60,000 nucleotides of DNA from Botryllus schlosseri (taxonomy: Eukaryota): the NCBI GenBank assembly GCA_051294905.1, contig CM119371.1:25918001-25978000 (forward strand). The letters run 5' to 3'. A program made the position numbers and the translations under genes. Positions 1 through 58,076 of the stretch are shown here, piece after piece. The notes under the pieces were generated by a model, which did not search any database, was not told the DNA's origin, and saw only the letters and a list, made by a program, of their open reading frames with translations. Numbering within the stretch: position 1 is the first letter of the stretch; each line of letters starts with the position of its first letter.

Positions 1-322
1 TACTAACGTAGTAGAGCATTTATTCGTATACGTGGGCGATACCGCGCCTCCTTGCGTGTATATTTAACTCTATATTCGTTCATCGGTTCAGAATCAATGA
101 CCACTCAATCTGTATTTCAGACATCTAGCAAAATGCAATGACGTAATCATGCCTCATGCTGCGAGAAGGCAAGTGGACTTGAATTTTGACTTGACTCGTG
201 ACTTGACTTGACTCGACTTGACTCGAGTCACCTTCGTAAATCGATTGACTTGACTCGAGTCAAAATGTGCAATGACTCGAAATGACTCGTGACTCGAAGG
301 TAGTGATTTGATCCCAACACTG
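1..322 (-). mobile_element. Partial GACTCGAGTC-rich MITE (CAGTGTTGGGA-terminus family), inverted relative to 17895-18641
   Basis: Reverse complement aligns with 17895-18215; ends in gatcccaacactg. Confidence 0.7.
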
Positions 323-819
323 GTATTGACTCGACTTGTATTCAAGTCACATGACTCGATACTGTGACATCGAATAACAGTAAGCTACCACACTATTGCT
401 ATTTCGTCTATCGGTAGGCTACCTGCATTTGTATAATTCGGGTCAGAAACTGCGTAAAGTGAGGAAACCGACTACGGAATATCATGAATGCGAGGCGTTC
501 AACATCACCCAGACATAGTCATAAAATCCTGAGCTTAGCAAGATTGAACGCGAAAGTGACTTGGTGTCGGACTCGGCTGATTTTTATCGACACCATTTTC
601 CGGATGACTTGAAATTGATTCGTGTATTTTGCTCCGAGTCCCGAGTCAATCCGCATTTTCGATACGCCGAGTCAAGTCAACCTCTTTTCGCGAAGGGACT
701 CGAGTCATCCCAAGCCTGTCTTCTAGCGACCAATTCACTAGTAACCATCACCGTGAGATACTGGAGCTGTAGTGCATTGCCACAATTGCAAACAATTATT
801 GACTCGCGAATAACGGGAC

Positions 820-1437
820 GTGGGTTGTAATCAAGTCACACGGTTCAGAGTCAAAAGTAAATCTCATTTTTATAGGTTTTACGCGAGTCAAGTCGAGTGA
901 TTTTCAATTCACCACCGAGCCAAGTCCGAGTCCAAGTCATTTTGTTCACTGTCCAGTTTTGAGTTCAATCAGGTTAATCCCACTTGTTACAAATCTTCTC
1001 GAGTGACATAGAACGGCTCGCATTCATAATATCGTAATTATCCTCATTCCTCATTTCTGGCCCTATTTTCCTAGTATCAGGAATGAGTATTGCTTTCACA
1101 ATTACGTTCATTGCAGTAAAGAATTTATCAAGTCAAAGACTCTTCGTGTGCCCCTTATCGAGAGTTAACGGCACAATAACAAGCATACAGAACGATATTC
1201 AAACGAAAAACCAAATTGGCAAAGTATTACTCTCGATAAGGGGCACACGAAAAGTCTTTGAGTTAATAAATACTTTACTGCAATGAATGTAGTGGTGAAA
1301 GTGATAGTACCGCCAACCATATTTTCAAGTATCAGATCTGACAGACGAAATCCCAATAACGTGGTTGCTTTACTATTCTTCAAAGTTACAATGAGATATC
1401 GGTCTTGGCCGTCCTAGTCTCGAGTCAATACACAACC
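820..1437 (+). mobile_element. GACTCGAGTC-rich MITE (CAGGGTTGTA family) interrupted by a Penelope-type inverted pLTR pair
   Basis: Start gggttgtaatcaagtcac and body match the full copy at 3094-3580. Confidence 0.7.
1088..1305. mobile_element. Inverted pair of Penelope-like pseudo-LTRs (family 2) with degenerate hammerhead motifs
   Basis: About 80-bp inverted repeats similar to the ends of 23902-26488; actc-TCGATAA-..-CGAAA-agtct-TT-gagt at 1229-1263. Confidence 0.55.
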
Positions 1438-1530
1438 ATGACGAGACGTGAAAGAACGTACCAAAGCGGCATGCTCAAAATTACAAGTATTATTCTGTTA
1501 TCTTCGAATAGTATATTCATGTTGAAATGA

Positions 1531-1564
1531 ACCCGAATATTTTCGGCTGACACTCGTCAGGGGT
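1531..1564 (-). ncRNA. Minimal type I hammerhead ribozyme motif (Penelope pLTR)
   Basis: Reverse complement reads accc-CTGACGA-gtgtcagcc-GAAA-atat-TC-gggt. Confidence 0.7.
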
Positions 1565-2159
1565 ATTCGTCAGCAACTAGCAGACAATCAGAAAGAACAT
1601 TGCTGATATGCTATTCAATTGCATACTGAAATTCTGTGCCTCCAAGAAGCTCTGTTATCTTTACGCATCTAACATACCGGTATCTACATTAGGGGTCTTC
1701 AAAAACAACTTTCTTTCTCAAATTGGTACTGGCCAACGCAACGCATCAAATGATGTTCAAATGATGTACAAACGATGTTCACCAAATTTGATTCAATTTC
1801 AAACAGTGGACGCGGAGTTATTGCCGTCGAAAAATTTGGATTATGAATAAAACAGTATTTACGGTGACCAATACTTTAAATATTTATTACAGTGGTGCCC
1901 ACCGTAAATACTACTTCATTGAAGTCCAAATTTTTCGACGGCAATATCTCCGCGTCCACTGTTTGGAATTGAACCAAATTTGGTGAGCATCGTTTCTATA
2001 GACAACCTGACACTTTCATGGGACGAACAGAAAACTTTCAAACTTTTTGTTATCAAATTTTATATAATAAACAGATTCTTTCTTCTCCTGTAGGAATGCG
2101 GCTGCTGGTTGGAATTGAACCAAATTTGGTGAGCGATTGTCTGCTAGTTGCTGAAGAAT

Positions 2160-2193
2160 ACCCCTGACGAGTGTCAGCCGAAAATATTCGGGT
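2160..2193 (+). ncRNA. Minimal type I hammerhead ribozyme motif (Penelope pLTR)
   Basis: accc-CTGACGA-gtgtcagcc-GAAA-atat-TC-gggt: stem I accc/gggt, palindromic stem III AATATT, predicted cleavage after C2189. Confidence 0.72.
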
Positions 2194-2642
2194 TCATTTC
2201 AATATGAATATATACTATTCAAAGATAACAGAATAATACTTTTAATTTTGAGCCTGCCGCTTTGGTACATTCTTTCATGTGTCGTGATGGTTGTAACTTG
2301 TGATGACTCGAGTCATTTTTTCAAATCCGGTAAATAACTCGACTCGAGCCATTGCGCGTGACTTGAACCAAGTCGTATGACTCGAGACTAGGACGACCAA
2401 GGCCGACATTTCATTGTAACTTTCTAAGAATAGTAAAGTCAACACGTTATTGGGATTCCGTCTTTCATTCCTGATATTTGGAAAACAGGGCCAGAAACTG
2501 TTAGGACTGAGTAAATTACGATAATATGAATGCGACCCATGAATGCGGTGTGTAGGCTTAAATTACGTAACCTAACGATTTTATCAAGTAGCCAGTACGA
2601 TTTGAGAAAAAAGTCATTTTTGTAGAGCATTAACATACATAC

Positions 2643-2999
2643 CTCTTTTCTTTCAGGGCTCTTAGCCAGACTTCGTAATTGACAGTGGAAGTCGCCACAC
2701 AGAACCAATTGCCATAAAACTGCTTATGGCTATCGGCCGTCCTGGCCTTCCCGCATTTACTGCATCGGGACAGCCTTGTTCTTGGTTTGTATTTCGTCCT
2801 GCACGATTGCGTGCTGGAAGGCAGCGATCGTTCAGGAGATTCCGATGCGGACCGTGCTCTAGCTGTGCCGCTCAGCAAAATCTGGACGAACTCCTCGTCC
2901 AATTCAGGTGGCTGCGTTGCCGGGGTGTCTTCGGGGGGCGCCATGGATTCGTTCGGTGTTGACGAGACATCTCTATCGATTCCATTCTGTGTCGTGCAA
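2643..2999 (-). CDS. Unit A zinc-finger exon (357 nt, phase 2-2): Pro/Thr-rich linker plus Cx2Cx8Hx8C finger
   Basis: Acceptor ttttcag at 3002-3000; donor GTATGT at 2642; open frame ...CSKCGKARTADSHKQFYGNWFC...; paralogous to 23521-23883 and 53586-53963. Confidence 0.8.
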
Positions 3000-3093
3000 C
3001 TGAAAATGTGACTAGGATAGAAGTCTTGGAAGAGCGGTTCCTAACCTTTTTTCTTGCGTCGTCCCCTTTCGAAACTTGCCTGGGTCTAGCGCC

Positions 3094-3580
3094 CAGGGTT
3101 GTACCCAAGTCACAAGGCTCCGAGCCACAAGTCAATCTCACTTTTATAGTTTTGACTCGAGTCGAGTCATTTTCAATTCGCCGCCGAGTCAAGTCCGAGT
3201 CCAAGTCAGCAAGCAGAGGGTCGAGTCCCGAGTATTATGACTCAAGTCCGAGTCCAAGTCATTGTGTCGACTGCTCAGTTTCCAGTTAAAGTCTTGTTAA
3301 GCCCACTTTTTATAGCTCTGTTTGGTGATATCGTATGGTTCGCATTTATAATATACTAATTTTCCTCACTTTTACCAGAATTTCTTGTGTCATATTCAAG
3401 GACCAGTACCAATAGACGACATCCCAATAGGGTGGTTACTTATCTACTCATCGAAATTATAATTAAAAGTCGGTCTTTGCCGTCTTAGTCTCGAGTCATA
3501 TGACTTGGTTCGAGTCATGTGCAATGACTCGTGTCCAAGTCGAGTCAATACACAGATTGACTCGAGTCATTACAACCCTG
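3094..3580 (+). mobile_element. hAT-type GACTCGAGTC-rich MITE, complete
   Basis: TIRs cagggttgta / tacaaccctg; 8-bp TSD ctagcgcc / ctagtgcc. Confidence 0.85.
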
Positions 3581-5409
3581 CTAGTGCCCCCCATATATTA
3601 AAGACGGTATCAAAACAAGGGGAAAGAGTTCGAAGTCCGGTCGGTCTTTTCAGGTTGAGACTTCACGATCTGAAATAGCTTGAATCGTGCCCGAGACCGG
3701 CACTCGACTAATAGCACTATGATTATTATATGCGCTGTACTCGGCATCAAATCAAAGTTGTTATAACAACCATCGGGTACGGGCTCCTACCATTTGGTCG
3801 AATAACTCTAACATGAAGGTATTCCAAACAAAGCAGCCCGTATTATATAACGTTCACGTTAGGTTGCGAGTCACAACGCCAAACAGTATTATCTTTTATT
3901 ATGAAGAAATATTCTGAAGATCTAGCTGTCTTATACAAATATATTTAGTTAATAATTTTGACCAAACAGCTTCAGAGCATCTTTAACTCCCACTCTTAAA
4001 AGTGGTGGTGTCTCTTTCTTCGATTCGACGCGCTGTTCGCCGCGGGATAAAATACTTAGTTCGAAACATTCCGTGGAAAATAACCCGAGGTAGCGTGATG
4101 GTTGTGTTTTAAAGAGGAATTGGCGATCTGAAAGTACGCGCAATCCATTCTACATTAATTATAATAAACAACTGCATGCATGGTGACAAGTTGCAAACAT
4201 TGTCCGTAGCGTGACGAAAAATTTCGAGATTTGACAGATTTTGTCGAACGGTAATTGGCAATGAGGACTCAGGGATATAGAGAACTATTATTCTACTACA
4301 TAATCCTATGTCCCCACTGCACCCGCTACTGCAACGCCATTTTTCTTCAGCGCCCCCAATAACGTCCCCTGAGCGTTTCCGCCCCCTTCAAACTCCAAAT
4401 CGCCCCTTGGAAGGCGCTGGAGACAAGGTTAAGGAACACTGTCTCAGAACGTCCAGGGAGATATATTTAATGACCACGGCCAAATAATGCACGTGAAGAC
4501 GACTTATTCTGCATATGACGCGAAAGTTGACTAAAAAAAGGCCAATTCAACGGAATGTAGACAAGACGCGGAAACCTGTTTCCCGAGCACGACCGTATTT
4601 TTTAGGACAATTCACCAGCGATCAGAGTCAGGTTAATAAATTTCCTGTTGATATATCCTCTATTTCGCATCCGTAAATATGGGGGCGGCTAAAAATTGTG
4701 TCGAGATTGATGAGGGGGCGATGAGTCGAAAAAGGTTGGGAGCCGCTGCTCTAGGCTATTCTAGTTGTCTAATTATTCCAATTGGAGCGAAATGCCGGTA
4801 ATGTAATTCTAATCTAATTTGTGAAACATTTCCTAGCTCTCATTTTAATACTTATATTATTTCCGGTTTTCCTGAAAATGCTACAGAACTGTTTAGTACG
4901 AGCGAGCCAAGCATGCTATACATATATTCGCCATTCTGATTTGACACTAGGCGAACTTGATTCAATTTCAAAGTTTTCACAAATCCAGTAACTTATTCCT
5001 ATTGTAATTTTGAAGAAAATGCGCAACTACAATTCTGATGCAAATCTGATTTAAAAAAACTGCAGCTATGATTGTAATCCTATTCAAATTTGGAAAAAAA
5101 AGGCTGAGCCGTAATTGCGAGTCTAGTCTAATTTGGAAAAGCTGGAAATATTGTAGTTCATGTTTTTAGAATACTTCCGCTCCGTCATAAACATACTTTA
5201 GGCAAAACCGCTTGTTACAGTTTTGATTTTGAACCAAACTACTACTTCTACTTTTTGCAGTAATCGATTAGGCTCTGCCTGATCCCACAATTTTCACAAG
5301 CAGCAACGTAGCTCAGAACACCTCCAATTCTACACGGTTCTACACAGTTTTTAGGTTAAAGTACTTGACCGCTTGCAAGGCTTACTCGTGTGATTGCGTT
5401 GCTAGAATC

Positions 5410-5943
5410 ATGGTGTAATGCGTCGAGTCATGACTCAACTAGACTCCAACTCGAGGCGCGAATTTTTGGTGACTTGGCGCGAGTACGGTAATTTTTGTAT
5501 GGACTCGACGTATACCCGAGTCATTGTGCATGGCTCGAACCAAGTCATATGACTCGAGACTAGGATGGCCAAGACAGACATTCCATTGTAATTTCGATGA
5601 ATAGTAAAGTCACCGCATTATTGGTATATCATCTATCAGTCCTGATACTTGGAAAATAGGATCGGAAACTTTTAAGGCTGAGGAAAATTACGATATCACG
5701 AATACGAGGCATTCTGTATCCCTGGAACAGAGTTAAAAAGTGGGCAGAATTGAAAAGTGAACACTAAACATAATAGCTTGGACTCGAGTCAAAACACTAT
5801 GACTCAGACTTGATCCTCCACGACCTGACTTGGACTCAGACCTGACTCGGTGGTGAATTGAAAATGACTCGACTTGACTAGAGTCAAAACTGTAAAAGTG
5901 ATACTGATTGTTACTCGGAACCTTTCGACTTGGTTACAACCCC
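5410..5943 (-). mobile_element. GACTCGAGTC-rich MITE copy
   Basis: Reverse-complement similarity to 3094-3580; ends gacttggttacaaccc. Confidence 0.7.
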
Positions 5944-6453
5944 AATTAGAATACCTCCACTACAACGCGAACAGGTCATAGACCAAAACTACTCAACGAT
6001 TCACAGTTTTTACTTTGAAACAAAGTACTTTTACTTTTTCTGAGCAGTCGGGTAGGTTATACAAAATAACTCTTCAACTTCAGTGGTTATGTTTTATGGT
6101 ACTTTCACTTCTACACGAGCAGTGTTTGTTTAGGCAAAACTATTCACTTTGATTTTGAAATGGCGAAGGTATAGTTTTCTGATGTATGTGTCACTTTGAC
6201 ATATGCAAAATTATAACAGCAAGAAACCCTGTATTAGCCCCAGTATCACGGCAACTGAATATATTTTCAAATATTCTACCTAGTTGTAGCGCGTGTTGTC
6301 CTAGAGATTCTGTGCTTGCCGCAAAGAGAAATCTTCCATCTCCGACTCACTGCTAAATACTCACGAAGATGTGTATACAAAATCATTACAATACGTGGGC
6401 CTATGACCTGCAGAAAAGAATATGCAACTTACTATTTAGTAACCACAGCTTAC

Positions 6454-6584
6454 TTTTGTACCTCTCCTTCACTAAACGATACACTACAATCTCTGAGAGT
6501 GATCAGAGAATCAGCCAACATGGAAGCCTTTACATTTCCAGGAAGGTTATCTGGTCGGACTGAACCTTGAACAGAGTGCCAATA
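6454..6584 (-). CDS. Unit A exon homologous to the last ~40 codons of the big transposase-like exon
   Basis: Translates YWHSVQGSVRPDNLPGNVKASMLADSLITLRDCSVSFSEGEVQ, matching the B and C exon-1 tails; conserved donor AA|GTAAG at 6453; candidate acceptor tttctag at 6587-6585. Confidence 0.6.
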
Positions 6585-6727
6585 CTAGAAACTGAGTGAC
6601 TGAGCGCGCTTCACTGTGCAAAATCTGTCGAATTAGTCCAGATACGCAACAGTAATAGAGCGTATAAGAGCATTGATTCTCGAAACGTTTCATAGCACGA
6701 GTCAAATTATAATTTTGTAGGACTCAC

Positions 6728-6730
6728 CAT
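6728..6730 (-). CDS. Putative ATG-only coding part of a first exon of unit A
   Basis: ATG followed directly by consensus donor GTGAGT (6727-6722); a 143-nt phase-0 intron joins it in frame to 6584. Confidence 0.4.
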
Positions 6731-7745
6731 CACACATCGAAACTCGAACGAAATGCATTTTTAATCATAGTATACTGCGATTTTATGGGTTCGTACGGAA
6801 TAGAGACGGTACAGACTACCATTGGTACGTTACGCAGTCCCATGAAACATTCATTCATTCATTACAAATTAAGAAATCATCAATTCAGTGAGGTTCTCAA
6901 AGTAAGTCACGAATTTCTCATTCATACGACATACAGTGGTCTATTTTCAATGCAGGGATCCCTCCCTCCACCCCGCTACCACTGGCAAACTATAGCCTCT
7001 CATAATCCTTACAGTTATTCTGCTTTGTCTTCACACTTTACTGTCGCATAGTTTATAATCAAAGTACACATGCTCAGCTTTCACTTTTGTTTTCGTAGTA
7101 CTACGAATCAATAATAATAATAATAACAATAGCAGAATGCACCATCGCTGTAGCGAGTCTCATATTATGGCTCATATGAACACATTTTTTTATGAACCGG
7201 ACCCATTTGGATTATGCACTCCAACTAGTCCCATTCGGCTCGGTTCGGTTTATTAGCAATTTTTATCAGTTCAATACACCACAGAATTGCGATACAATCA
7301 AAAGAGATTGAGGTCGAAACGACTTAGGCGGGGGAGATAGTTACGATAAGCGCCCACCAAGCAGACGGACCGAGTTCGATTTCCGTCGGAGGTTTATCTG
7401 GGCTCCTCTTCCCCTGCCGTTGCCGCTCTACGGCAACAAAAAAGACCCGAAAAAGACCCGACGAAGAAAGCATTCACAAGGAATGGAAAGAACTAGTAGA
7501 AAGGGCCGCGGCTTCAAAAAAAAGATCAACATCGAAAAAACCGTGACATCGGGCACTCTAGGCCGAGGTGGATGTTAGAGTAAAGGATCGCTAGTGATGT
7601 GTGTCGTTCGACATCCTCCTCTCTGTTCATGATATCGCATTGTGTCTGATCGCATTGTACATTATGTGTGACTTGTTCAGATGAAAAATATAACCCAACT
7701 ATGTTATGTTATGTTATGAAATCAGATCACTCACCTTGACTAGGC

Positions 7746-9706
7746 CGGTGGTTCTCAACAGGGGGTCCGCGAAGCATTTTCCGGCGGTCCGCGAGACGTC
7801 CAAATTCGGAAATGGTTGATAACGTAATTTGTACTTTTTTAAATTAGAGAAATAACGAGACAGTTTCGCTTCATAACTGCAAAAACTTAATAACTGACAC
7901 AAACAAAATGGCCGTTTGAGAGGAAATATTATACTGTGCAAACTCATTTTAATATCCAAATTACCAAGAGAGAGAGAGAGAGTCTTTATTTTTCATCAAA
8001 CCAGAATACGTAACACTCGGCAGTGGTGGTGGTACAGAAAATATGCATGCACAGTATTCGGTATTAGATAGGAATGATCGATAAGACCGTGAGGGTCATC
8101 TAGTCTGATCACACCAGCATCAAACAGGTACACTTGACTCTAAACAGTCTGGCTGTAAAAAAAGTTACAGTAGTTAAAAAATAAAATAGAAGAAAAATTA
8201 AACGATGGTAGCAAATGATCAATGAAGCAATGTCTGGGCGAGGTAGGGCAACAGTGTTAGTGTAACGATAAGAGGTGATCAAGTAGGGCTTTTTTGAATC
8301 TATCATAAGGCAATTCACGGATATGTGGTGGTAATGCATTCCAAATGATAGGTCCCGAGTAGTCGATAGATCTCTTAGTTAGGTTGCTATTGGGTGGGGG
8401 TAAGTAGATATTTCCCTTTGACGAGGATCTCGTGTAGTGGGAATGGACATTTTTAGCAGGTATGAAAAAGTCATCAAACACAGGAGGCAGACTATTGGAA
8501 AAATATTTGTGAACAACTTTTGATACTTCGAAGCGATATAGCTTATCAACTCGCAAAATTCGATGCTTACGGTAGTAAGGCGATAAATTGGTACGTAAAG
8601 GTACAGATGAGATCAGCCGTATCGCACGGTTTTGCAGGGTTCGAATTCTGCACAGAAATGTTTTGCATGCACTTCCCCATACTACGATTCCATATTGCAG
8701 GTGAGAGTGGAAAAGAGAAAAATATATGGTTCGTAGTATTGATCTGGAAACCAAAGATTGCAGACGGGTCATTATTCCCACACACCGAGCTAGTTTTGAT
8801 ATTGTGCATTCAATATGCTGCTTCCAAGACATTTTAGCATCAATAGTGACACCGAGATATTTTGCTGAGTCACATATGGAGATTTGTTTATGATTGATGT
8901 TCACAGTGAAACTATGATTGGCATTATTTAAAAGGAGCAATAGCCTACAGATACATATAAACAGATTGCTGTTTAGAGAATTTTGTTGGAGTTTTGGGAA
9001 AAATCGTTTGCAGAAATCCATTTTATCTTGTGATATGCATAACCGCTATTTTAGAATATAGCTGCTGGATAGAAATTTAAGGACTGCTGGACGCTTATTT
9101 TCAGTAAAAAATCGGTATCTCAAATTTCCATGTCATGTAACTGGCGATCATACCCAAAGGTGTCGTCGGAAGCGTTGCGCGTTATTTTTACATTCGTCAC
9201 CACCAATTTTTGTGAAAATGGTTTTTCGGCAATCGTTCATAACAAATCGGCGGCGCGGATCTTCAAGACACACCGCGTATTTCAAAAAACCTTAGCTACT
9301 ATATTCGCTTTGAAATAATAAAAGTCTTCCCAATTTATACATAAATAGTAGGATATGATGTTAGTTTTAAGGATGAGCATTCCGTTACTGTTTAGCATAC
9401 TAGCCTATACAATTGATTTTCGCACAATAAGACAGATGACGGTTGTACGATAATAGGGCCAATCAGTCAATCAGGTGTACTAATATTTTAATTGTTTCAA
9501 AACATCACAAGACTGTGATACAATGAAAAGATAGGAAGGTATCGAAACAACTTGGAGTAGCCTTTAAGATCAGACACCCATCTTAGCCTAGGGCCTTGGC
9601 GAAGTAAAGAAGAGGCATGCTAAATTTAAACTAAAACTTTGGGGTCCGTGGGCTTCCGTGACGGTCCAAAAGGGGTCCGCAAAGACAAAAAGGTTGAGAA
9701 CCACTA
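7746..9706 (+). mobile_element. Non-autonomous hAT (Charlie/Buster-like) element containing a LINE insertion
   Basis: Ends cggtggttctcaac / gttgagaaccacta; TSD gactaggc / gcctaggc; remnant YPKVSSEALRVIFTFVTTNFCENGFS (about 9148-9230) resembles the hAT C-terminal dimerisation domain. Confidence 0.7.
7967..8945 (-). mobile_element. 5'-truncated non-LTR retrotransposon (CR1/L2 group), RT C-terminal region and 3' UTR
   Basis: ORF 8257-9021 contains AKYLGVTID..SWKQHI, YFSLFHSHLQYGIVVWG and LQNRAIR; 3' end AATAAA plus (TC)n tail; related 3' end at 39695-39765. Confidence 0.88.
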
Positions 9707-9711
9707 GCCTA

Positions 9712-10080
9712 GGCGATTTCAAGACGGGGAATGCATATTGAATGAAAAGTAAAATATAGATAGTAGGCTATATAAAAGCAAGCGACAGAATGCGGTGACA
9801 TGTCACGGAAGATGAGATCGATAGGTCAGGTCGTGGTCCGGTAATTTTGAGGGAGGACTAGTATTCATTCAGGAGAAATTGCTTGTATCTCGACTTGAAT
9901 GAGCACAATGCACACGTGCTCGTCGACAGTCGGATGACCGGCGGGATACTGTTCCAGACGTCAGGTCCGGCATATTTGATGAAGCGATGACCTTTTCGGT
10001 CGATCATACGATAATTGAACAACGTGGACGCGCGTGTGTCATAGGCCTACTTGTGCGTTTTTGATTCCGAGGTATATCTT
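9712..10080 (-). mobile_element. LINE 3' fragment (same family as 38035-38760)
   Basis: Nucleotide similarity to 38040-38380. Confidence 0.65.
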
Positions 10081-11812
10081 TTCATTTGCTTTACGACTAC
10101 GCCACTTGAATGCGGTCATCATCGATGTCATTGAACGAATATCGCATTTGTCTGTCTGCTCAAGGCACACACTATAAAACGCGATAGAAAGACAAAAACG
10201 ATGTCATCAACATTAAAAATATGTCGAAACGACCAGCAATTACGGTCTCCCTGTCTGGCATCCGCAGCACCCAATCAAACTTTGATCTTGACCTTGATCT
10301 TGTGGGTGTCTTTCCTTAGGCACATTTCTTTGTTCGTTTCGTTCGATTTGTTGTATATGCCCTTTATCGGGTCATTCTCTGGGCTATTCTGACACAATTG
10401 ATAAAAAAACGAGCGACACAGAGGAGCCTACCCTGCGTGAAGGGACAAATGCGCCAAAACAATAATGCATATACTGATAAAATAGCACTTCGGCACTGGA
10501 TAGAGTAGACTTGGAGTGACTGCAGAAACGAGCGCCTGTCGCGACCTTAGCAGAATTACCCTTTCTACCAAATATACCCATAATGGTTTGACATGCGATA
10601 TTCGTGCGCTCGTTATCAGTCCGTCCGTCGTCATCAAGTTTAGTGGAATGTAGACGGTTCCCTTTCAAACTAATCGAATAAACTCAGAGTTATTGCCAAT
10701 AAGAATCTGGAGTTGCATCAATATTGGAGAACTTAATTCAACGCCGTGCACTGTACAATAAGTCAGTAACGAATTAAACTACAAGCTCACTTCAAGTGAT
10801 ATCGTGCGACAATTCAATAGTGCGAATGTATCAAGCATAGACAAGAATGAATATACACAAAATTGATGTTTACAAAATGAAAACCCTGCATGCATTCACT
10901 AATTGCCTTTTATATTCAACACCAGGAGCAGGGGGTTTTGACATCGCATTGACTAGCTCTCGTCGCGATAACTAAATGCGGACTATATTGGCGTTTTGGG
11001 CTGCTTCAACGTTCGGAAATAGTCATCGGAGCGAACAATCATGCGTTGAGATGAACTTCAATTCGTATGCATTGAGTAAACGATAAGACACTTGTCCAAT
11101 TCCACGCAACGATTAAAAATCTATCAACAAGGAACGTGCATTTGCTCATCCAATTCAGAAAGGAGACGATGTTTTCAGCGTGCGGCATGTGCGCCTCCAA
11201 ATCGAGACGTGCAGCAAGGTCATGTTTTTATTCTCTGGCGTCGCTTATATAATCGTCTAATTACTAATTAGTTGAATTGCTCATCTCACATAAGCATCAA
11301 TCCCGTTTTGTGATATGCATGTTGATCATTATTTTACGAACCACACATTTGGACATCGGTGTTGTGCTGATGACGAAATTGCGGGTATGACGAATACCCA
11401 TATAACACAGTAATTATACGGATTAAGCGCGGCATATCCAGCCTATCCAGGCTTAGCGCCTATATGTATCAACTGAACATTGCTACCGGTTAGTTAGAAA
11501 AGGTGGTGCCAACGAGGCAGCAATTCTTAATTTTTTGAGCGATTATCGTACAATTATGTGAATTCAGCCATTAGAATAGTAGTATAGCATCTTATTTAAT
11601 ACATAGCAGCCGGAGCTACCTTTCAAACAACCAGCTCCAACTCCATAGCTCCACTTGTAATATAGGTATAGAGCTCCGGCTCCGCTGAAAACTCACGGGT
11701 TCGGGGCTCCGGCTCCAAAGCCCTAGTTCTTACATCACACTACTACATCGTACATCGTACAATGTACATTGGCTTGTTAAAAATAACTTTCTTTTCCAAA
11801 TTTCACTTTCTA

Positions 11813-13831
11813 GGGCGGAGATAATAGAGTTAGCTGATCCGGGAGAATGCTATAATCGTGTGATTAAAAACTGCTAATCTGAACGCATTTTGGGCGGATA
11901 TAATAAAGTTAGCTGATCCGCAAGAATGCTAATCGTGTGATTAAATACAGGGCCGTAACAGCAGCCGTCAGCCTCCCCCCAAAACGTTGGTCTTCGGCCC
12001 CCCATGGGGTGATAACCCTAACTTCTGGGGAACCCCCTCAGGCTATACGCTGTTTACGGCTACGTGTTATCATCTGCATTCAGTACCCGTTTAGTGAGTC
12101 AGCTTTTCTCGCCTAAACGCGCGAAGCGCGAGAAATTTCAATAATTCATGACTGAATTGGTCAATATGATCGGGAAATGCATTTATATTGCTATAAATTT
12201 TTACCCTCTCTCTGCTCGCGTAATCTGATTTACCGGTACAGCTGAGGGAGATGTGTTTGAAAAGGTAGACCCGCTCCATAATAATTAAACATCTCCGGGT
12301 GTCTACCAGTTGGCAGGAACGAAACAGCACTTCGTCAGGCCCAAAAAACTTGAGAGTCTTGGGCTCCTACAGGGACCCCCCATCATGTTGTTCGCTTTTG
12401 CCACGAAATTATATAGTCGCCCTATGTCCTGTGATCCAGCGCGAAGCGCGAAAATTTTCGATAATTCATGATAAAATCGGTCAATAAGATCGGGGATTGC
12501 ATATATATTGTTATCAGTTTCTTGTCCACTCTGCTCATCACGTAATCAGATTTACCGGTAGAGCTGAGCGAGGTGTCTTTGAAACTGTAGAGCCCCTAAA
12601 TAAAAATTAAACATCTTCGGTCGGGCGGACCCGTTGGTATGACTTCGTTACATAATGTTATTTCGTGAGCTCCTCCTGTCTGCTATTTCAAAAAACAGAA
12701 TCGCCCAAACGTACTAAACTAAAAGATCACACGATTTCATATTGGTATTTCTTCACTCGCATATAATTCTTCCCTGCGGGATGGTATTCGTCTTGTGAGG
12801 TTCAGATTGCCAAGACAGGAACATTCGGCGCCAGTCATTTAGGCGCCTATGGACAATTAAACCTATATGTATTTTGCATATATAACGAAGTTTTCGGTCA
12901 GCATAAGGGCAGTTCTCTTCGGCCAAGGTTAATTCGCTGCCGATCGCTCTGGCACACTTCTTGGAGTCGCATGTTACTTGGCATTAAACTTTATATGTCT
13001 TGGTGCGTCGTGGCGCGGTTATGGCCAACACCGATATGCACATTTCTATAAATCTTGCGTATTATATCTTGGGGGAAGAGTACCCAATATTCAAGATATT
13101 TGGCAACTTGAAATCGCGCATAGCGCTAAAAAATTTTGAAAAAGTTGCATCAATTTTTCAAAAAATAGTCTATAATTTATGCTAATTCACGAAATAATTT
13201 TGGGCCCCCTTCGAGCTCGCCCCCCCCGCAATTGGGGGATTTAGGGTGCGGCAGTTACGTACCTGATTAAATACTGCAAATCGCGACGCATAAAGTTGCA
13301 AAAGGTTATGCGCGATGGTTAGTCAAGATGTCCCGAGTTTTCAATCAAGTCGCATTATATGTTGCATCATAATCCGAAAACGCGTTGCAGGCTGTCAGTT
13401 GTCAATTTGTTGAATGAAAAAGCAGGCTGCTGATAACGACACTGCCACTTTCATATGTAGAATTATCATCATCGCGAAATAAAAGTCGTGTCCAATTAGT
13501 ACGGTACAAATAAGAAACGGATTATATATTATTGATAGCGCTCTGCAATGGTGCATGGGTACAAACTTCGTTGATTGTTTAGTGAAGCCATTACCTAGGA
13601 GACAATCGGCACGGACATTATCGGAAATATTTGTGCGCAGGAATTGTACGCATTGTACGCAGTTTTGTAGCTAACTTAGTTGTCTATAGTTGGTTCCGCG
13701 GCTTGTTAAATCATGAGATTAACACGAACTTTATACGCGGCGATCAACCGGTTTCCTTAATCCTGTGTTGATAAATCCTGACGAACGCGATAATCGACTT
13801 TATTGCTAATCCAACTTTATTATCTCCGCCC
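11813..13831. mobile_element. PIF/Harbinger-like MITE hosting a nested hAT MITE
   Basis: TIRs gggcggagataat / attatctccgccc flanked by cta / tta. Confidence 0.55.
11948..13265. mobile_element. hAT-like non-autonomous element with an internal ~320-bp direct duplication
   Basis: Ends cagggccgtaac / gttacgtacctg; 8-bp TSD attaaata; 12118-12300 resembles 12439-12620. Confidence 0.75.
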
Positions 13832-15528: not shown

Positions 15529-17894
15529 ATCTATACTATCTTCTTTTACTTTTCATTCAGTGTGCTTGCCTCCTCTTTACATCGCCTAGGCCAGGGTTGG
15601 CCAACCTGCGGTCGTACAAGGGAATTTGTGCGGCCGTGGATACATCCAAATTGAATTTACGAATTGACTCCTGAATTTTTGAGAGATTTTAAATATTCTT
15701 GACATTTTCTTTGCGCTGTGCGCGATTCAACGTAACTTCATTTTTCTATTTCAATTTGCTAGCACTTTTGCAATCTCAGCCCCACAGTTCAGATGTGAAG
15801 AGCAGAGTAAAATAATCCGCCCCATACTAAAAATACCAATTTGGAAATCGTGTTTTACTTGCGAAAGAAATTTGTTTCTGGTACGTTTGAGCGATTCCAA
15901 TATATTTCCACTATATACTGACAATATTGATGGGAGGTCAAGAAATAAATAACAGCATGGAGCTAATAAGTGACTAACAACAATTGTCACACCCGAAAAT
16001 CCATTATCATTTATAACTTGCCCTAGATTTTCGAAAACACCTCCTCCACCAGCTCTACCGGTGAGCTGATCACATGGGCCGAGAAAGGATAATACTAATA
16101 TTAATGACGGAATTCATTCGTGAAACTGAAAATCTTTCGCGCTTCGCGCGACCACGGTGGGTCACAGCAATTATTCATAACATAATCACTTACGCTATCG
16201 GCGGGTATGGTAAGCCTATCTGAATAAATAAGTCAGGCCGGAGCTCTCCAGAAATGGACATTTTAACATGGATATTTGGCGTCCATTTAGTATCAGTGCA
16301 TTACGACTATATGCCCCGGAATGCGGTCGTAGGCTACACGATTAATCGAAATGCGTCCGTGAATAGCAAAACGGTTAGCCACTCCTGGCCTAGGCCAAGG
16401 TGGGCGTCTGATTCCAAAGGCTACTCCAAGTCGTTTCGACACCTTCCCATCTTTTCATTGTATCGCAATTTTGTGGTGCATAGATCTGATAAAAATTGCT
16501 AATAAACGGAACTGAAATTTGCCACCGTAAATACAATTATTTCAAATAATGGTCGAAATTTCAATTGCACCTGCACGGCTTTTACTGGTAGGAGTTGACC
16601 CAAATTTGGCGCATAGCGTTTTTAGGCAACCTGACCATTTTATCACTGAAAGCAAGTGAAATTTGGGAAAAAACGGTATTTCAGAACAACCCTAATATAC
16701 ATCGAATATACTGCTCGTGGTTAATTCGTTACGCAATTAGGAGCAGAGTTAATAATCTTGACGTAATATTGAGCAGTCGCGTGTGAAAACCCTACGTTTC
16801 TACGATCAATAACCTGATAAAATAAAGCACTCTTTCTTGTTCACGATTATTCAGTTGTCATTGTAGTCCTCGTACGAGTAAAAAGTAATCGCTCTTTCAC
16901 AAAGAAATCGATTAGACATGCGAAATGATAGATTGCGATAACTTCCGACAATTTTCGAATGAAATCGATAGCTTGAAAACACTTCTATTACTTTTGCATG
17001 TAGTTCAGTGTGCATACCTCTCAGGACATGGTGGATTACTCCCAGTCGATTTGACTCCTTCCTGTCTTGTTTAATCTCGCGGTGCAATGAAGTGATGGAA
17101 TTACAAGTAAATTGATAGGCTGTATACCAGACGTGGCCAGTGAACTGAACATGCAATTTTTATTTCTCTGCGTGCTGAAGCAGTTTTCACATATTTGCAT
17201 TACTTCAAACAGGTATAGGATTTTAGTCTACCCTGTCAGTTTTTAGGCTAAACTCACAATTAAACTTACTTGTAAATCGTTACTTATACTTGCACTTAAT
17301 CAGAAATTTATATGGTCACTCCTACTCATATAAAATACCAACCACTTTGCCCACTTCAACGACAGACCTCCACCGTCCTACATGCTGTAGTCCTTCGTCT
17401 ACCAACACAAAGAAATGCGTAATTTGATAGCAAAATGATATCGATATTTTTTCCACGAATAAAGCATAGTTTTGAAACGAATGCCGCAATTCGCACGCGG
17501 TACTAGCAAGGGAAGCAGCAGCAGACACAAGACTTGTCGAGAAACGCACTTTTGAATAAGGAAATGGATTAAAATATCCTTACAACCTCAGATGCAGAAG
17601 ATTACATTCAATAAAGTGTTAATATGAAGGACGATATGAGCCACAGTACTCTGGGAGAATACAGGTCAGCCAAAAATATGCGACAAACTAAACAGTTATC
17701 ATCATACGAAGAACACAGTAAGGAATGCAAGCAAGCAAATGATGTACAGAAATACCTTACAACAATGTAAAGTGTGTAATCCTATACTAGTCGAGCACCA
17801 CTACGGGAGTGCAGTGATTCCCAAACTGCGTGCATCCACAGACTCTCAGGTGTGCCGCGAATCTTTTTCTACTGCTGGAAAGAGCTTCATGCAT

Positions 17895-20365: not shown

Positions 20366-20529
20366 TTATGATTTCTTCCCTTGTTTGCCATACCCCTTCT
20401 CTATCAGTACTTTCAGCCAGACTTTATAACCGACGTTAGACGTAGCCACAGAGTACACATTACCATAATACTGCTTGTGGGTGTCATTAGTGATGGGTTT
20501 ATCGCATGTGAAAGCCCATTTCTGGGTTA
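20366..20529 (-). pseudogene. Decayed second zinc finger of gene B, now in the 3' UTR
   Basis: Lies behind TAG TAA stops; frameshifting deletion; CDKPITNDTHKQYYGNVYS versus CSQCDKPRTADTHKQYYGNQYC in gene C. Confidence 0.8.
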
Positions 20530-20767
20530 CTATTTCTTGCGATGGGCTAGGCCGGACGTAGCAGGTAGTGGTAAAATTTGTGTTTCGTTGGTACACGATG
20601 TATCAAGCGGTAAAACGAAAAGAAACTGCTGCTGCGTCGCAGGAGCCGACGGCTTTGCAGACTGTCGTTGGAACGACTGTGAGGTTTCCGTTGTCGTCGG
20701 TGAAGACGGCATCGCAACACGTGGTTTCAGAACGCCTGTTTCGCTTCGAGACTTTCGTTTCGCGGAC
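20530..20767 (-). CDS. Gene B exon 3, truncated by a premature stop
   Basis: Acceptor gttgtcag at 20770-20768; in frame with exon 2; homologous to 51151-51604. Confidence 0.75.
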
Positions 20768-20989
20768 CTGACAACGGGAAAAAGTTGAAAATGCCCCTCC
20801 TCGCCACCTGATCCGCGTTGGCGGTGCCTTAAAAAAGCCTAGAAGTGGGGCATGCTACATGTCGGTAAATGGCAGAATCAAAATGAAGAACATAGGCCTG
20901 GAGAAAAATGACTTGGGCTGAGCACAATGATTGGAGTGTAGGCTACTTGATTCTGAATCGAGTATTAATTCTAATGATGGCTCGATCAT

Positions 20990-23520: not shown

Positions 23521-23883
23521 CTCTTTTCTTTCAGCAGTTTCAGCCAGACTTCTTGACTGACAGCGGACGTGGCGGCACAGAACCAATGGCCGTAAAACTG
23601 CTTGTGGGTGCCCAACGTCCTGGCCTTGCCGCATTTGCCGCATCGTCTGGTTCTCGGTTTGTGTCCCTCCCGATACCATCGTTTGCGAGAGGGTGGCGTT
23701 GGATCCGGAGATTCCGCCCGTGTTCCATCTGTAGTACTCAGCAGGATCTGCACAAACTCGTCTTTCGGCGCCGGTGGTTGCGTCGCGGGCGTCTGTTCGG
23801 GCGGCGCCATGGTTTCGTCTGGTGTCGGCGGAGGTTGCCTCTCATTCTGGACATCTCTCTCCGTCACAATCTGTTTCTCGCGA
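23521..23883 (-). CDS. Gene B exon 2 (363 nt, phase 2-2), Cx2Cx8Hx8C zinc finger
   Basis: Acceptor ctatttccag at 23886-23884; donor GTATGT at 23520; CGKCGKARTLGTHKQFYGHWFC; frame-compatible with exon 1. Confidence 0.85.
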
Positions 23884-26447: not shown

Positions 26448-26642
26448 TAATAAATATTCAGTTACAATGGATGTTGTATTGAAAGCTATATTCAAGTTCT
26501 GTACCACGAACCAGCTATTTAAATAGAGATAGACTTAACCAGATTAATGTATCAGAATTTAGAACGTTGTACGTTTTCACAATAAGACCTACCTAAGACC
26601 TGCAGAAAATATACAATTTACCATTGAGTAACCTAAACTTAC

Positions 26643-28939
26643 TTTTGCACCTCCCCTTCAGTCAAAGATACACTGGAATCTCTGAAAGTGAGTGGAGAGT
26701 CGAAAGAGGCCGTGTAATTTCCAGGAATGTCATCCGGCCCGACTGAACCTTCGGCAGACTTTATCTCGTTATCACCAGGTTCATCATTGCTGACCACTTG
26801 GTTTGAGGATGAACTTGTGCTTCTATCTTCCAACGGGACAAAAAAGGCATCACTTATCAGAATCTCTCCGCACTCTGTCAGGCCAATGCCTTCGTCTTCC
26901 ATTTCCCGGCTTTCATCCTGATGGGACAGAATCGCTTGGCCATTTTCATTCAATAATGGAAACAAAGGATTTCCGGTTTGGCTATACAGGTACTCCACAC
27001 CGATGAGCTCACCAGTGTATTGTCCGATCACGGCAGGACCAGGACATAATTCCATACCGAAAGTTTCCATACCAAGCGAGCGAACAGCGTTCGACAAGAG
27101 CCCGCTATAACTACGTAGCCTACTTTTGGATTTGCCTTTAATCGCATTGGCTGCACGGTCTTTGTTCCACCTGAACAGACCTTCTAAAAGATAAGCCTGA
27201 AAAGGTTCTGCGTTGGCACACTCAACGGGAATAGATCCGTTCAGATGAGCGTGAAAAGAATCCAAAGAAGCGGATCTAACGCAGTGGTACACCGGCAATC
27301 CAACACCGCTCTTCCTGACTGTGCCAGTCCGCGTATACAATGGTATGTCCGTGGGATCAATAACGCATTGAATATGTTTTTGTTCCGTATCCCAAATCTT
27401 CCAAATTCGGGAGGAATCAAATAAGGGAACTCCACGCGTGTCATTACCCTTCGGGCTCGCGAAAATTTTGATCAAATCGTAAACAAGCGACTTTATAATT
27501 TCAGGTCGTCTGGTTATTCGACGACAATGCAGATCTTTCTCTTTCTTCGTAATGCGTCGAATTATGTCTTTCTCCGACGGGTTCTGAATGAACTCAGCTA
27601 ACATCTCACATCTTTTCGCCTCTTTCAAACGACTCCAATCTTCTTTGGATAACTGAAAGAAGCAATCGGAGAGTCTATCAATAAATTTGTCGTACAGAGG
27701 GTGCGATTTTGTAGTGCATCCACATGTAAACCGAGTTATAAAATGAGAAATCTCCAGACGTACAATCAGATTCGGCCAATTCTGGAAAAGCTTACGAAGA
27801 TGCTGGTGTTCACTGCCGCAACATCCTCGTTTGACATAAAGGACTTTAGGCGGGCTAACGCGAGCATCAGAATAACGTCTCATCAACCCCGCTGCCATCT
27901 CTACAAGACCGTCCCCTTCAGCACACGTTAAAACACACATTAAAACCTGTCCGTGTTCGTTACCGACACTTACGGCGCATTCAGCAGTATCTCGCGACTC
28001 ACCTCCTAGATTTTTAGTTACTTTGGTGGTGGAATCCATTCTGATGATGGAGCCAAACGTTGACGTAATCGATGACTTTATCTCATCAAGTCTGGAAAAA
28101 ACATCTTTGAGATAAGCAGTCTGAAGCCATTGCGCTGTTTGAACGGGCTTGAAATCAGGGGGCTGCATGAACTCGGGGCAAGATCCTAATGTCCCATTAT
28201 CATACGCTTCTTCGTAATTTCTGCAGTCAGTCAGATAACGCAACACTTTTTGATAGTATTTCTCGGTGTGTTGCTCGGAAAGGGTTTTATACAGCAGAGT
28301 GGGGCTAATACCCGAGGTTCTTTCGCGCAAAGGTCTTATGACTCTCACGTCGCACGCGTGTTTGTATGTAAGCAACGCAGGGAACTGTAATCTACGGGCA
28401 ATGTCAAGCTGAGATATGATTGCACTATCCCAGGCAGCGACTCTTGTTCCGCAACTGATACATTCAAGACATTCGGTAGCCAAGTTGTAATAGCTGTCAA
28501 CGTCTAGCACTTGTCGTACTGTTTTGTACAAGCCGGCGCTTGTGAGCTCTTTTGTACAATTTTTCCGGCTACAAATCAACTTGCATCCCCAAAGTTTTCG
28601 TGGCATCCATAAAAAAAGCGACTGCGCAAAGTACAGTGTTGGCCGAGGCACTTCACTGCAGATCAACGGTACTTGAGGCGGATGCCACCAAAGTTTGTCG
28701 ACACGCAAAAAGTTCATTTCAGGTTTGCCTGTCTTATCGTTGGTCTTGAATAGCGCGTCAGATACCCAGGCGTGGTCTGCGATTGGTAAAGACTTTCGCC
28801 ATCCCTTGATCAGAGCGCAGTTCGATATCGGAGAAGAACAGCAGCATATAGGTTGAGTCTCTTGGTTGGGACTTTTAGAGTGCACTTGTTCAATGTCGGG
28901 AGGTAATTTGCAAACGACCGTGTTATCCTGAGATTGCAT
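26643..28939 (-). CDS. Gene B exon 1: DUF6729-type transposase-like protein (predicted spliced product 965 aa)
   Basis: Intact 2.3-kb ORF; motifs FLWMPRKLW, RQVLD, QFPALLT, MDST, VGNEHGQVL, LYVKRGCC, SLDSFH; ATG (MQSQDNT) shared with C; donor AA|GTAAG at 26642; conserved upstream acceptor at 29020-29018. Confidence 0.85.
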
Positions 28940-34512: not shown

Positions 34513-35303
34513 TAAGAAATCATCAACTCAGTAAGGTTGAAGTTTTTCATGGATTTCTCATACATCAGTAGTCTATTTTCAATTCAGGACTCCCCTCTTC
34601 TATCCTGCTGTCACTCACACACTGTAATCCATCAGAATCATTCGTTATTCTGCCGTGTCTTACACTTTACTGCTGCATACTGCTTAGTTTGTAGTCAAAG
34701 TACACAAGCAGCCAAGCTCAACTTTCACTTTTGTAGTCTACTACGAAACAAGGATAATAATAATAATAACTATCATTCATGCAGCATGTGCCATCGCTGT
34801 AGCGAGTTTCTTACTATGGCTCGTATAACTACATTTTAATCAACAGGATAAATATGCATTATGCGCTCCATCGTATCTCATTCAAACACAGTTGATTCGC
34901 ACTTTCAATACATCTTTTATCAACTGTGGTCTACTGTGGTGGACGATTTTTCCATTATTCGAGGAAGTACGTTTTTGATACATAACATAGGAAACAGTCT
35001 GTGATAATTAAATATCCATGGAAACAGTCTGAAGCACGAATGCAAAATTTGCTGTACAGTGAGGCCTTTTTCTTGATTTTCCGTTTTTTTTTTGTAATCC
35101 TGCATCCATCATTAGCTTGAATAAAATGAGACACACGACGTGCAATGTGAGTGAGGGACAACCACAATTTGATGTGGAACAGTATCCCGCCGGCCATCCG
35201 ACAGTCGACGAGCCTGTCCAGAGGACAGTGTCCACATTCAAGTCAATATACAAGCAATACTAGTCCACCCTCAAGATTACACGACCACGACCTGACCTAT
35301 CGA

Positions 35304-51150: not shown

Positions 51151-51604
51151 TTATGCTTTTAATTTCTTCACACGTTTGCCACACACCTTGTCCTTCAGTC
51201 CTTGCAGCCAGACTTCGTGGCTAACGGTAGACGAGGCCGCACAGTACTGATTGCCGTAATACTGCTTGTGCGTGTCCGCAGTCCTTGGCTTATCACACTG
51301 GCTGCATATTGAAAGCCCAGTTCTGGGTTTGTATTTTTTGGGGCGGGCAAGCCCGGCCGCTTCTTCGCCAGCCCGTTTTCCCCTGCACGAATGTGTGGTG
51401 GGCGGCAGGGGTTCAATTTGTGGTTTGGCGGGTGGCGTGCCACGCGGCAAAATAAACACCAACTGCTGTTTCTCTCCGGTAGTCGGAAGCGTTGCGGGAT
51501 TCTTTTCGCTAGACCGCGATGTTTCCGCGGTTGTCGATGAAGGTTGAATCGGAACAACCTCTTTCGGAACGTCCGTTTCACTTCGAGACCTCCGTTTCGT
51601 GTTC
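51151..51604 (-). CDS. Gene C exon 3: linker plus second Cx2Cx8Hx8C zinc finger and stop
   Basis: Acceptor ctgttgtcag at 51607-51605; open frame to TAA at 51153-51151; CSQCDKPRTADTHKQYYGNQYC. Confidence 0.82.
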
Positions 51605-53585: not shown

Positions 53586-53963
53586 CTCTTTTCTTTCAGT
53601 GCTGCCAGCCAGACTTCGTAACTGACAGTGGCCGTGGCCACACAGAACCAACTGCCATAAAACTGCTTATGGCTATCGGCCGTCCTGGCCCCTCCGCATT
53701 TACTGCATACAGAGAGCCTTGTTCGCGGTTTGTATCTCGGTCGACACGTGAGGCCGGCCTCTTCTTTAGCGGCACGTTTCTTCCAGTATGATAGTGTGGA
53801 GCGTGATTTGGCGCCACTCAGCAGAATCTGCACGAACTCTTCTTCTAATGCGGGCGGCTGCGTCGGCGGTGTGTGTTGGGGCGGAGCCGTGGTATCGTTT
53901 GGTGTGGACGAAGGTTGCTTCTGTTTCGGGACATCTTTCTCTGTTCCAGTCTGTTTCATGTAC
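53586..53963 (-). CDS. Gene C exon 2 (378 nt, phase 2-2), Cx2Cx8Hx8C zinc finger
   Basis: Acceptor attttcag at 53966-53964; donor GTGTGT at 53585; CSKCGGARTADSHKQFYGSWFC. Confidence 0.82.
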
Positions 53964-55752: not shown

Positions 55753-58076
55753 TTTCGCACATCCCCTTCACTCAAAGATACACTGCAATCTCTTAAATGG
55801 GGCAGAGAGTCGGCTGACGTGGAAGCTTTTTCATTTCCTGGAATGTCATCGGACCTGACTGAACCTTCAGCGGAGGTTATCTCGTTATCGACAGGTTCGT
55901 CATTGCTGACCACTTGGTCCGAGGATGAACTTGTGCTTATATCTTCAAGCGGGACCAAAACGGTATCATTTGTCAGCATATCTCCATCGCTAACAGTCAC
56001 ACACTCTGTCAGGCCAATGCCTTCGTCTTCCATTTCCTGGCTTTTATCCCGATTGGACAGAATCGCTTGCCCATTTTCATCCAATAACGGAAACAAAGGA
56101 TTTCCAGATTGGTTGTATAGGTACTCCACACCGATGAGCTCACCAGTGTATTGCCCAATCACGGCAGGAGCAGGACATAATTCCATTCCGAAAGTTTCCA
56201 TACCAATTGAGTGAACAGCGTATGACAAGAGCCCGCTATAACTACGAAGCCTACTCTTGGAATTGCCTGTAACCGCATTGGCAGCACGGTCTTTGTTCCA
56301 TCTGAACATTCCCTCCAAAAGATAAGCCTGAAAATGTTCTGGGTTAGCACACCGTCCGGGTATAAATCCGTTGAGTTGAGCGTGAAAAGAATCCAAAGAA
56401 GCGGTTCTGACGCAGAGGTACATCGGCAATGCAACACCGCCCTTTTTGAGTGTGCCAGTCCGTGTATACAGCGGCACGTCCTTGGGATCAATAACACATT
56501 GAAAATGCTTTTGTTCTACATCCCAAATCTTCCAAATTCGCGAGAAATCAAATAAGGGAACTCCATGCGTGTCATTACCTTTAGGGCTCGCAAACATTTT
56601 GATCAAATCGTAAACGAGCGACTCGATAATTTCAGGTCGTCTAGTTATTCGACGACAATGCAGATCTTTCTCTTTCTTCGTAATGCGTTGAATCACGTCT
56701 TTCTCCGACGGGTTCGGAATGAGCTCAGCTAACATCTCACATCTTTTTGCCTCTTTCAAAAGACTCCAATCTTCTTTCGATAACTGAAAGAAGCAATCGG
56801 TGAGCCTATCCATAAATTCGGTGTACAGTGGGTGCGATTTTGTAGTGCATCCGTTTGTAAACCGAGTCATAAAATGTAAAATGTCCAGACGTACTATCAG
56901 ATTCGGCCAATTTTCGAAAAGCTTACAGAGATGCTGGTGTTCACTGCCGCAACATCCTCGTTTGACATAAAGGACTTTCGGCGGGCTAACGTGAGCATCT
57001 GAATATCGCTTCATTAACCCTGCTGCCATGTCAACGAGACCGTCCCCTTCAGCACACGTTAAAACACACATTAAAACCTGCCCGTTTTCGTTACCGACAC
57101 TCACGGCGCATTCAGCAGTATCTCTCGCCTCACCTCCTAGCTTTTTAGTTACTTTTATGGTGGAATCCATTCTGATGATGGACCCAAACGTTGACGTAAT
57201 CGATGACTTTATCTCGTCAAGTCTGGAAAAAACATCTTCGAGATATGCGGTCTGAAGCCACTGCGCTGTATGAACAGGTTTGAAATCAGGTGGCTGCATA
57301 AACTCGGGGCAAAATCCTTGCGTCCCATTATCATACGCTTTTTTGTAATTTCTACAGTCAGTCAGATAACGCAACAGTTTTTGATAGTATTTCTCCGTGT
57401 GTTGCTCGGAAAGCGTTTTATACAGCAGAGTGGGACTATTACCCGAGGTCCTTTCACGCCAAGGTCTTATGACTCTCACGTCGCACGCGTGTTTGTATGT
57501 CACCAACGCAGGGAACTGTAATCTACGGTCAATCTTGAGCTGAGAAAGGATTGCACTATCCCAGGCAGCGACTTTTGTTTTACAGTTGATGCATTCAAGA
57601 TATTCGGTAGCCAAGTTGTAATAGCTGTCGACGTCTAGCACTTGTCGTACTGTTTTGTAGACGCCGGCGCTTGTGAGATCTTTTCCACAATTTGCCCGGG
57701 TACAAATCAACTTGCATCTCCAAAGTTTTCGCGGCATCCATAAAAAAAGCGACTGCGCAAAGTACAGTGTTGGTCGAGGCACTTCACTACAAATTAACGG
57801 TACTTGAGGTGGATGCCAACAAAGTTTGTCGACACGCGAGAAGTCCATTTCAGGTTTGCCCGTCTTGGCGTTGGTCTTGAACAGCGCGCCGGACACCCAA
57901 GCGTGGTCTGCGATTGGTAAAGACTTTCGCCATCCCTTAGGCAGAGCGCAGTTTGATATCGAAGAAGAGCAGTCGCACATAGGTTGACTTTCTTGGCTCG
58001 GAGAGCCACTCTTAGTGTGCACTGCTTCGATGTCGTGAGATAGTTCGCACGCGGCCGTGTTATCCTGAGATTGCAT
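55753..58076 (-). CDS. Gene C exon 1: DUF6729-type transposase-like protein (predicted spliced product 1051 aa; alternative ATG at 58112)
   Basis: Intact ORF colinear with gene B; donor AA|GTAAG at 55752; conserved upstream acceptor at 58163-58161. Confidence 0.85.

Follow-up and report, generated by a model that had tools for sequence, protein, structure and literature searches.

Three related units, here designated A, B and C, lie on the minus strand of the stretch of Botryllus schlosseri DNA analysed in this work (60,000 nucleotides of contig CM119371.1, positions 25,918,001 to 25,978,000; hereafter, the window). Unit C spans 58076-51151 and unit B 28939-20372, and each is composed of a big exon of ~770 codons together with two finger exons. 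The part of unit A that falls within the window consists of a short big-exon tail and one finger exon, after which the window ends. The features considered below are as follows, in window coordinates.

2643..2999, minus strand: finger exon of unit A, a Pro/Thr-rich linker and a Dada C-terminal CCHC finger; open frame, both ends in phase 2; present in contigs of sets X3 and X5
2699..2764, minus strand: zinc ligands C-x2-C-x8-H-x8-C of unit A, 4 of 4 intact
3000..6279, minus strand: GT..AG intron spliced out in the single linking contig (X3 record 4, 0 gaps)
6280..6453, minus strand: ancestral intron start of unit A, kept in the linking contig, with a cryptic donor after 6280
6454..6576, minus strand: big-exon tail remnant of unit A, 41 codons, with a donor-like GTAAGC at 6453
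6577..6841, minus strand: 265-nt filler of unit A, lacking a counterpart in either B or C; acceptor 6585, ATG directly followed by GTGAGT (6730/6727), ATG 6737; no RNA depth
6842..7278, minus strand: upstream block of unit A, homologue of B 33634-34912, ~80% of aligned columns
10074..10426, minus strand: second upstream block of unit A, single-copy, homologous to B 38900-39263
20372..20767, minus strand: second finger exon of unit B, broken by two stops and a frameshift
23521..23883, minus strand: first finger exon of unit B, intact
26643..28939, minus strand: big exon of unit B, Dada/DUF6729 body, 766 codons; K in place of the second D, D in place of E, ExxH in place of DxxH
51151..51604, minus strand: second (terminal) finger exon of unit C
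53586..53963, minus strand: first finger exon of unit C, intact
55753..58076, minus strand: big exon of unit C, 775 codons; K in place of the second D, D in place of E
3094-3570, 5497-5942, 20988-21420, 21541-22032, 36998-37482, 51867-52336, 53021-53490 and others: repeats of ~480 bp

Organization of the cluster

The three exons of unit C join into an open frame of ~1050 codons that carries two fingers. In unit B the last exon (20372-20767) is broken, and the spliced frame comes to 965 residues and a single finger. A single-copy block of 500 bp lies downstream of both B (17264-17746) and C (48529-49013), alike at 76% of aligned columns, and marks the end of the unit.

The original prediction for this locus held that unit A had kept only the last ~40 codons of the big exon with their donor, that homology in the upstream spacer restarted at about 6840, and that the transposase body was missing, and each of these points is confirmed in the present assembly. 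The remnant amounts to 41 codons, the big exon breaks off at 6576/6577, and the homology with B resumes at 6842 (6842-6871 with B 33634-33663, followed by 6870-7278 with B 34513-34912), such that ~6.9 kb is absent from unit A relative to B. The tail (6575-6453) aligns to the ends of the big exons of B (74%, 176 columns) and C (77%, 153 columns), and its 41 codons match B and C in tblastn searches at E values of 4e-8 and 9e-11. Its donor, GTAAGC, differs at +6 from the GTAAGT found in B and C. The acceptor of the finger exon opens at 2999 and its donor lies just after 2643; a homologue of the third exon was sought in positions 1-2630, to the left of this finger, and none was found there. The upstream block at 6842..7278 is possibly a promoter or first exon, and the bin that covers it (6801-7200) has zero RNA depth.

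The filler that now separates the tail from the upstream block (6577-6841) matches no other part of the window. Three candidate origins were considered and rejected: a decayed big exon, as equally good scores came from 591 and 815 of 1000 random stretches; the region 5' of the big exon of B or C, which it does not match; and an element with clear inverted ends.

Several further observations pertain to the surrounding sequence. A dense family of ~480-bp repeats with GACTCGAGTC-rich ends populates the introns of all three units, and self-inverted fold-back elements of 200-300 bp, with arms 74-87% identical, occur at 1093-1301, 1767-1998 and 25449-25736. An insertion of ~2.2 kb (7281-9517) splits a short repeat, with joints from 7281-7287 to 9517; it holds a 262-codon ORF (8257-9045) that has no Pfam hit and that resembles the terminal portion of a LINE reverse transcriptase, and the repeat at 7201-8000 has an RNA depth in the thousands. 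The 46 nt that follow the tail donor (6408-6453; B 26600-26642, minus strand) end in a good acceptor and are well conserved, A and B agreeing in 48 of the 56 columns there, and splicing of this mini-intron would give a stop two codons later. The protein P0001 (68% to B) carries a tail module of ~62 residues twice in tandem, the boundary falling exactly at the position of the big-exon donor, and it ends at that same position without a finger. P0001 was rejected as a full-length allele of A, given 27 of 41 identical residues in the tail.

Relation to Dada transposases

The big exons correspond to Pfam DUF6729, a domain that all 120 of the listed homologues carry (112 of which were aligned, 8 short or partial matches being left out). 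Five of the six dDada accessions of Table S3 in PMC8869645 sit in two protein clusters, P0110 and P0106, which match unit B at 1e-127 and 2e-131, and the finger of unit A is identical to the C-terminus of P0110 at 15 of 39 positions. The structural model of unit B (pLDDT 82) has the IS256-family transposase ISCth4 as its best match (E 2e-6). Taken together, the dDada accessions in the matching clusters, the spacing of the motifs and the structural match to ISCth4 argue that these are Dada transposases by descent, and by sequence and modelled fold we consider that the DUF6729 family is the Dada transposase superfamily. No paper that treats DUF6729 by name was found in the literature searched.

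The published accounts, in the sections available to us, permit a closer comparison. Dada-U6_DR has the triad D567/D635/E811 and a C-x2-C-x9-H-x8-C finger (PMC3706591); unit B shares with it the 68-residue spacing of the first two triad positions, and the finger of unit A is the Dada C-terminal CCHC finger, with a spacing of x8 in place of x9. Relative to the Dada superfamily as described (Kojima & Jurka 2013), B and C have substitutions at the second D and the E, little is left of the helical region that precedes the finger, and the finger exon is doubled. In unit B the triad positions read D302/K370/D560, with an ExxH motif in which H399 is kept; in unit C they read D, K and D, with DxxH kept. 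An intact DDE triad with DxxH is accordingly absent in both B and C, and unit A is without a catalytic domain. An N-terminal CCCC finger is present in B (C123, C128, C160, C163) and in C and is deleted in A, and the C-terminal CCHC finger is present in A and in the first finger exons of B and C.

Active Dada elements insert in small RNA genes and generate target site duplications (TSD) of 6-7 bp (PMC3706591). Searches for such hallmarks covered the window, and the left end of unit A lies outside it. Within the window there were 0 tRNA genes, 0 Rfam hits at gathering score and no snRNA at E<=1; no TSD or subterminal repeat was found; and the 9-bp subterminal inverted repeat of Dada-U6 gave 0 exact occurrences and 12 with one mismatch, where 13.2 were expected. 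It had been supposed that a product of unit A could compete with or regulate B and C, and B and C are probably not active transposases.

A domesticated Dada-U6, dDada, has been described in Cyprinoidei (Kojima 2022, PMC8869645) as one orthologous fish locus between skp2 and lmbrd2b, with a DxxQ motif. As in dDada, which is transcribed, the catalytic residues of B and C are mutated and the frame is kept. Unlike the dDada DxxQ, the H is kept in B and C; they are no more than 38-43% identical to P0110 and P0106, and the cluster consists of three copies in tandem, of which one is truncated. Neither skp2 nor lmbrd2b was noticed among the 23 long ORFs of the window. Units B and C thus appear to be catalytically weakened, tamed Dada genes that resemble fish dDada at another locus, and the cluster looks like a second Dada domestication, independent of dDada. 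The literature examined, which excludes subscription papers and Repbase, contained no report of a Dada transposon in ascidians, of finger-only transposase-derived paralogs, or of such clusters.

Selection and mosaic history

The finger exon of unit A is intact and transcribed and carries a signal of purifying selection. Pairwise omega is 0.36-0.41 in the finger exon and 0.27-0.38 in the tail, and the big exons of B and C, which are still under purifying selection, give 0.33 over 766 codons. On the branch leading to A, the finger exon has accumulated 13 synonymous and 10 non-synonymous changes, for an omega of 0.24 (p=0.0008) that is lower than that of B (0.51) or C (0.72); the estimate is 0.28-0.30 with transition weighting and 0.25 on transversions (p=0.017), and it rises to 0.42 without CpG sites, which is not significant (p=0.145). 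The tail has 5 synonymous and 8 non-synonymous changes on the same branch and displays no significant constraint (p=0.15). These selection figures for unit A give no date for the deletion. In rough simulations, a neutral finger frame is still open in 30% of cases at 2% divergence and in 5.7% at 5%, which leaves two options, a recent deletion or a finger that remains in use.

The history of the units is not uniform along their length. Between B and C, dS is 0.26 in the big exon (26643-28939/55753-58076; flanks 14% different) and 0.65 in the finger exon (23521-23883/53586-53963), and the finger cores of A and C are alike at 136 of 155 positions. This pattern suggests a B/C mosaic that would have arisen from conversion or recombination between units, and as such gene conversion may add to the selection signal of A.

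Transcripts of unit A

Part of the unit A finger exon is contained in 19 of 24 sequencing runs, at 0.08-0.79 of its words. Four runs were mapped to positions 1-12000 of the window at 88% likeness: two raw RNA runs and the contig sets X3 and X5, the latter being taken as RNA on the basis of a GT..AG joint and of matches that end at 2642. The contigs described here are 16 of 11,508 pieces and the joints 15 of 315, and our conclusions rest on the depth table; it should also be borne in mind that contigs drop rare RNA forms. The raw RNA (1934 and 1105 million letters from one study, ~6% of each run) has zero depth in the bins 6401-7200 and cannot test the junctions. Contig depths over the finger are 4.6-9.3, and across 6550-7200 there is no coverage in any of the 4 mapped runs.

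Among the contigs listed, a single one, X3 record 4 (496 nt, depth 7.74), runs from tail to finger. It matches 6549-6280 without gaps and continues at 2999-2774, remaining unspliced through the 6454 donor and removing a GT..AG intron from a previously unproposed donor (joint 6280^2999). This contig fully explains the X3 depth in the bin 6401-6800 (7.74 x 149/400 = 2.88), and hence no other X3 contig covers the tail or the micro-exon discussed below. With 21 of its 496 letters unlike those of the window, the linking contig may represent another allele or copy, in which the 6453 donor or the stop may differ; it ends at 6549, inside the tail and short of the 6576/6577 breakpoint. Three listed contigs end their match at 2642, two of which are A-like. 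X3 record 1 and X5 record 9 both stop there, and the latter has 38 further letters. This implies a next exon outside the mapped stretch, in keeping with the further exon that had been predicted beyond the finger, and the next exons of B and C begin with G, as expected beyond these contig ends. X3 record 3 (to 3016) and X5 record 9 (to 3043), which are near-identical, extend past the 2999 acceptor into the intron. X3 record 2, with 18 differences to the A finger, fits unit C (19 differences), and an X3 contig of depth 22 fits the unit C finger core (53585-53739) and extends beyond its donor, which indicates that C or a close copy is transcribed.

The intron start retained in the linking contig (6280..6453, minus strand) contains an in-frame TAA at 6452-6450 and an ATG at 6386 that is open and in frame with the finger. 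On the window sequence, this transcript form would give 45 residues from the micro-exon start and a stop 170 nt before the junction, a likely decay target. Its finger frame can begin only at ATG 6386, 154 codons from the end of the exon, or at ATG 2944 (100 codons), and the upstream ATGs 6535 and 6521 fall inside the span of the linking contig. Protein searches with the unit A finger ORF scored 0 of 372 and 0 of 17 candidates, which is weak evidence; a HMMER scan returned 64 matches and no A-like spliced product (best 52% identity); an atlas search gave no usable match; one metagenome scan gave 0 of 426 stretches, and a second gave 6 weak matches of 49, at 29-30%. There are, then, low-level transcripts of unit A with one cryptic joint, and a matching protein is absent in the above searches.

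Interpretation of unit A

Of the readings of unit A, the one that we favor, at about even confidence, is that it is a paralog that was truncated recently and gives rise to weak cryptic transcripts, probably without a protein that matters. Unit A would be one of three copies of a Dada transposase gene that had been tamed and weakened in its catalysis, and it would have been full-length and working for most of its history; one internal deletion (break 6576/6577) would then have removed the transposase body, leaving a remnant with weak transcription and loose splicing, as seen in the cryptic donor at 6280, the unspliced 2999 acceptors and the normal splicing out at 2643. The deletion would be recent and the selection signal older than the deletion. 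As the introns of A share no single-copy sequence with those of B, the 265 nt of filler may derive from the upstream DNA of A itself, so that no more than a single clean and recent break is needed. In support of the remnant reading, the sole linking contig among those listed ignores the in-frame 6454 donor, and the tail frame stops at 6452-6450. Against it, the low omega of the finger on the A branch leaves little room for a neutral period, the observed splice puts ATG 6386 in frame, and the 6727 donor is a perfect consensus.

That a finger-only protein is made from unit A by some route is possible, if short of probable. One such route, which we consider unlikely, is a working finger-only gene that uses the 6280 donor, a start at ATG 6386 or 2944 and an off-window exon. 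The joint 6280^2999 was seen and is in frame, a start at ATG 6386 would add 35 new codons from old intron, the finger is purified with all ligands intact, and the match of three listed contigs stops at 2642, where splicing to a further exon would end it; yet the joint was seen in one contig of one run, with the upstream ATGs 6535 and 6521 in its span, an in-frame open ATG is frequent by chance (1017 of 4000 trials with random stretches of 174 nt, and 148 of 4000 at >=35 codons, that is, at least 35), and the lack of a matching protein counts weakly against it. The route that was predicted originally, a rescue by a new ATG micro-exon spliced 6728^6584 and 6454^2999, we consider improbable. Every site that it calls for exists, including an acceptor tttctag ending at 6585, an ATG at 6730-6728 followed by GTGAGT, and a stop-free spliced frame of 163 codons through to the finger exon; the out-of-frame ATG that had been pointed out near the start is found at 6737 and would yield 15 residues if spliced, and a purine stands at -3 of the in-frame ATG 6730 and not of the ATG 6737. 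Splice sites were judged by consensus match and the chance criteria were chosen after the site was seen; by those criteria, of 4000 random 266-nt stretches of the window, 1527 accommodate the model if any GT may serve as the donor, 84 if GTRAG is required and 11 if G/GTRAGT is required. The 6727 donor is hence better than chance, yet it may be inherited rather than new, since B has a similar GTGAGT motif at the collinear 33603, a score that 124 of 2000 random stretches reach (p ~0.06). Whether the micro-exon is new is uncertain for that reason, and a variant in which 6727 is the old donor of a B-like first exon, with just the ATG and acceptor being new, is possible. Neither junction was seen in this thin RNA: the tail contig is unspliced at 6454, and no depth covers 6550-7200 in the four runs. 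In addition, three further AGs lie in the 30 nt upstream of the acceptor, and the tail donor of A is off the B/C consensus at +6. The rescue thus finds no support and is weakened without being refuted, as the depth is very low and the linking contig represents a 4% divergent allele or copy.

It is quite unlikely, in our view, that the deletion is confined to this haplotype or assembly with other A alleles being full length, or that B uses the finger exons of A for its 3' end. Polymorphism of the species is high at this locus, as the partial word content of the 19 runs attests, and the allele of origin is not shown by a linking contig that ends inside the tail. For the 3' end of B, the big exon and finger exon of B join in frame to the finger exon of A (1005 codons, 0 stops) and the last exon of B itself is broken, but no contig or loose end among those listed makes this connection, and the intron would be 20.5 kb.

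Internally deleted Dada derivatives exist, such as Dada-U6N1_DR (PMC3706591). The KP protein of Drosophila P elements keeps its N-terminal THAP domain, binds element DNA and inhibits the active transposase (PMC7776569), and unit A, like KP and the 66-kDa repressor, is a deleted derivative that keeps a zinc-binding end of the transposase and is without its catalytic core. Unlike KP as described in that account, unit A keeps the C-terminal CCHC finger, and the window is without an active transposase; the analogy is a loose one. By this analogy, a tamed Dada gene that lost its catalytic body might have gained a new start from non-coding DNA, at the micro-exon ATG or at ATG 6386 in former intron, and been kept as a stand-alone, KP-like CCHC regulator that would modulate its full-length sister genes, an outcome that we regard as unlikely.

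The literature found describes one Dada domestication, in carps and minnows. The cluster described here would add a second, one in which the finger exons are doubled, and it links DUF6729, a Pfam family so far unassigned, to Dada. Should unit A make no protein, it would be an early pseudogene of an ordinary kind, and units B and C would be what makes the cluster interesting. If it does make a protein, the C-terminal finger of Dada would be naturally isolated, such that its function becomes testable, and unit A would represent a gene whose start was rebuilt after a deletion.
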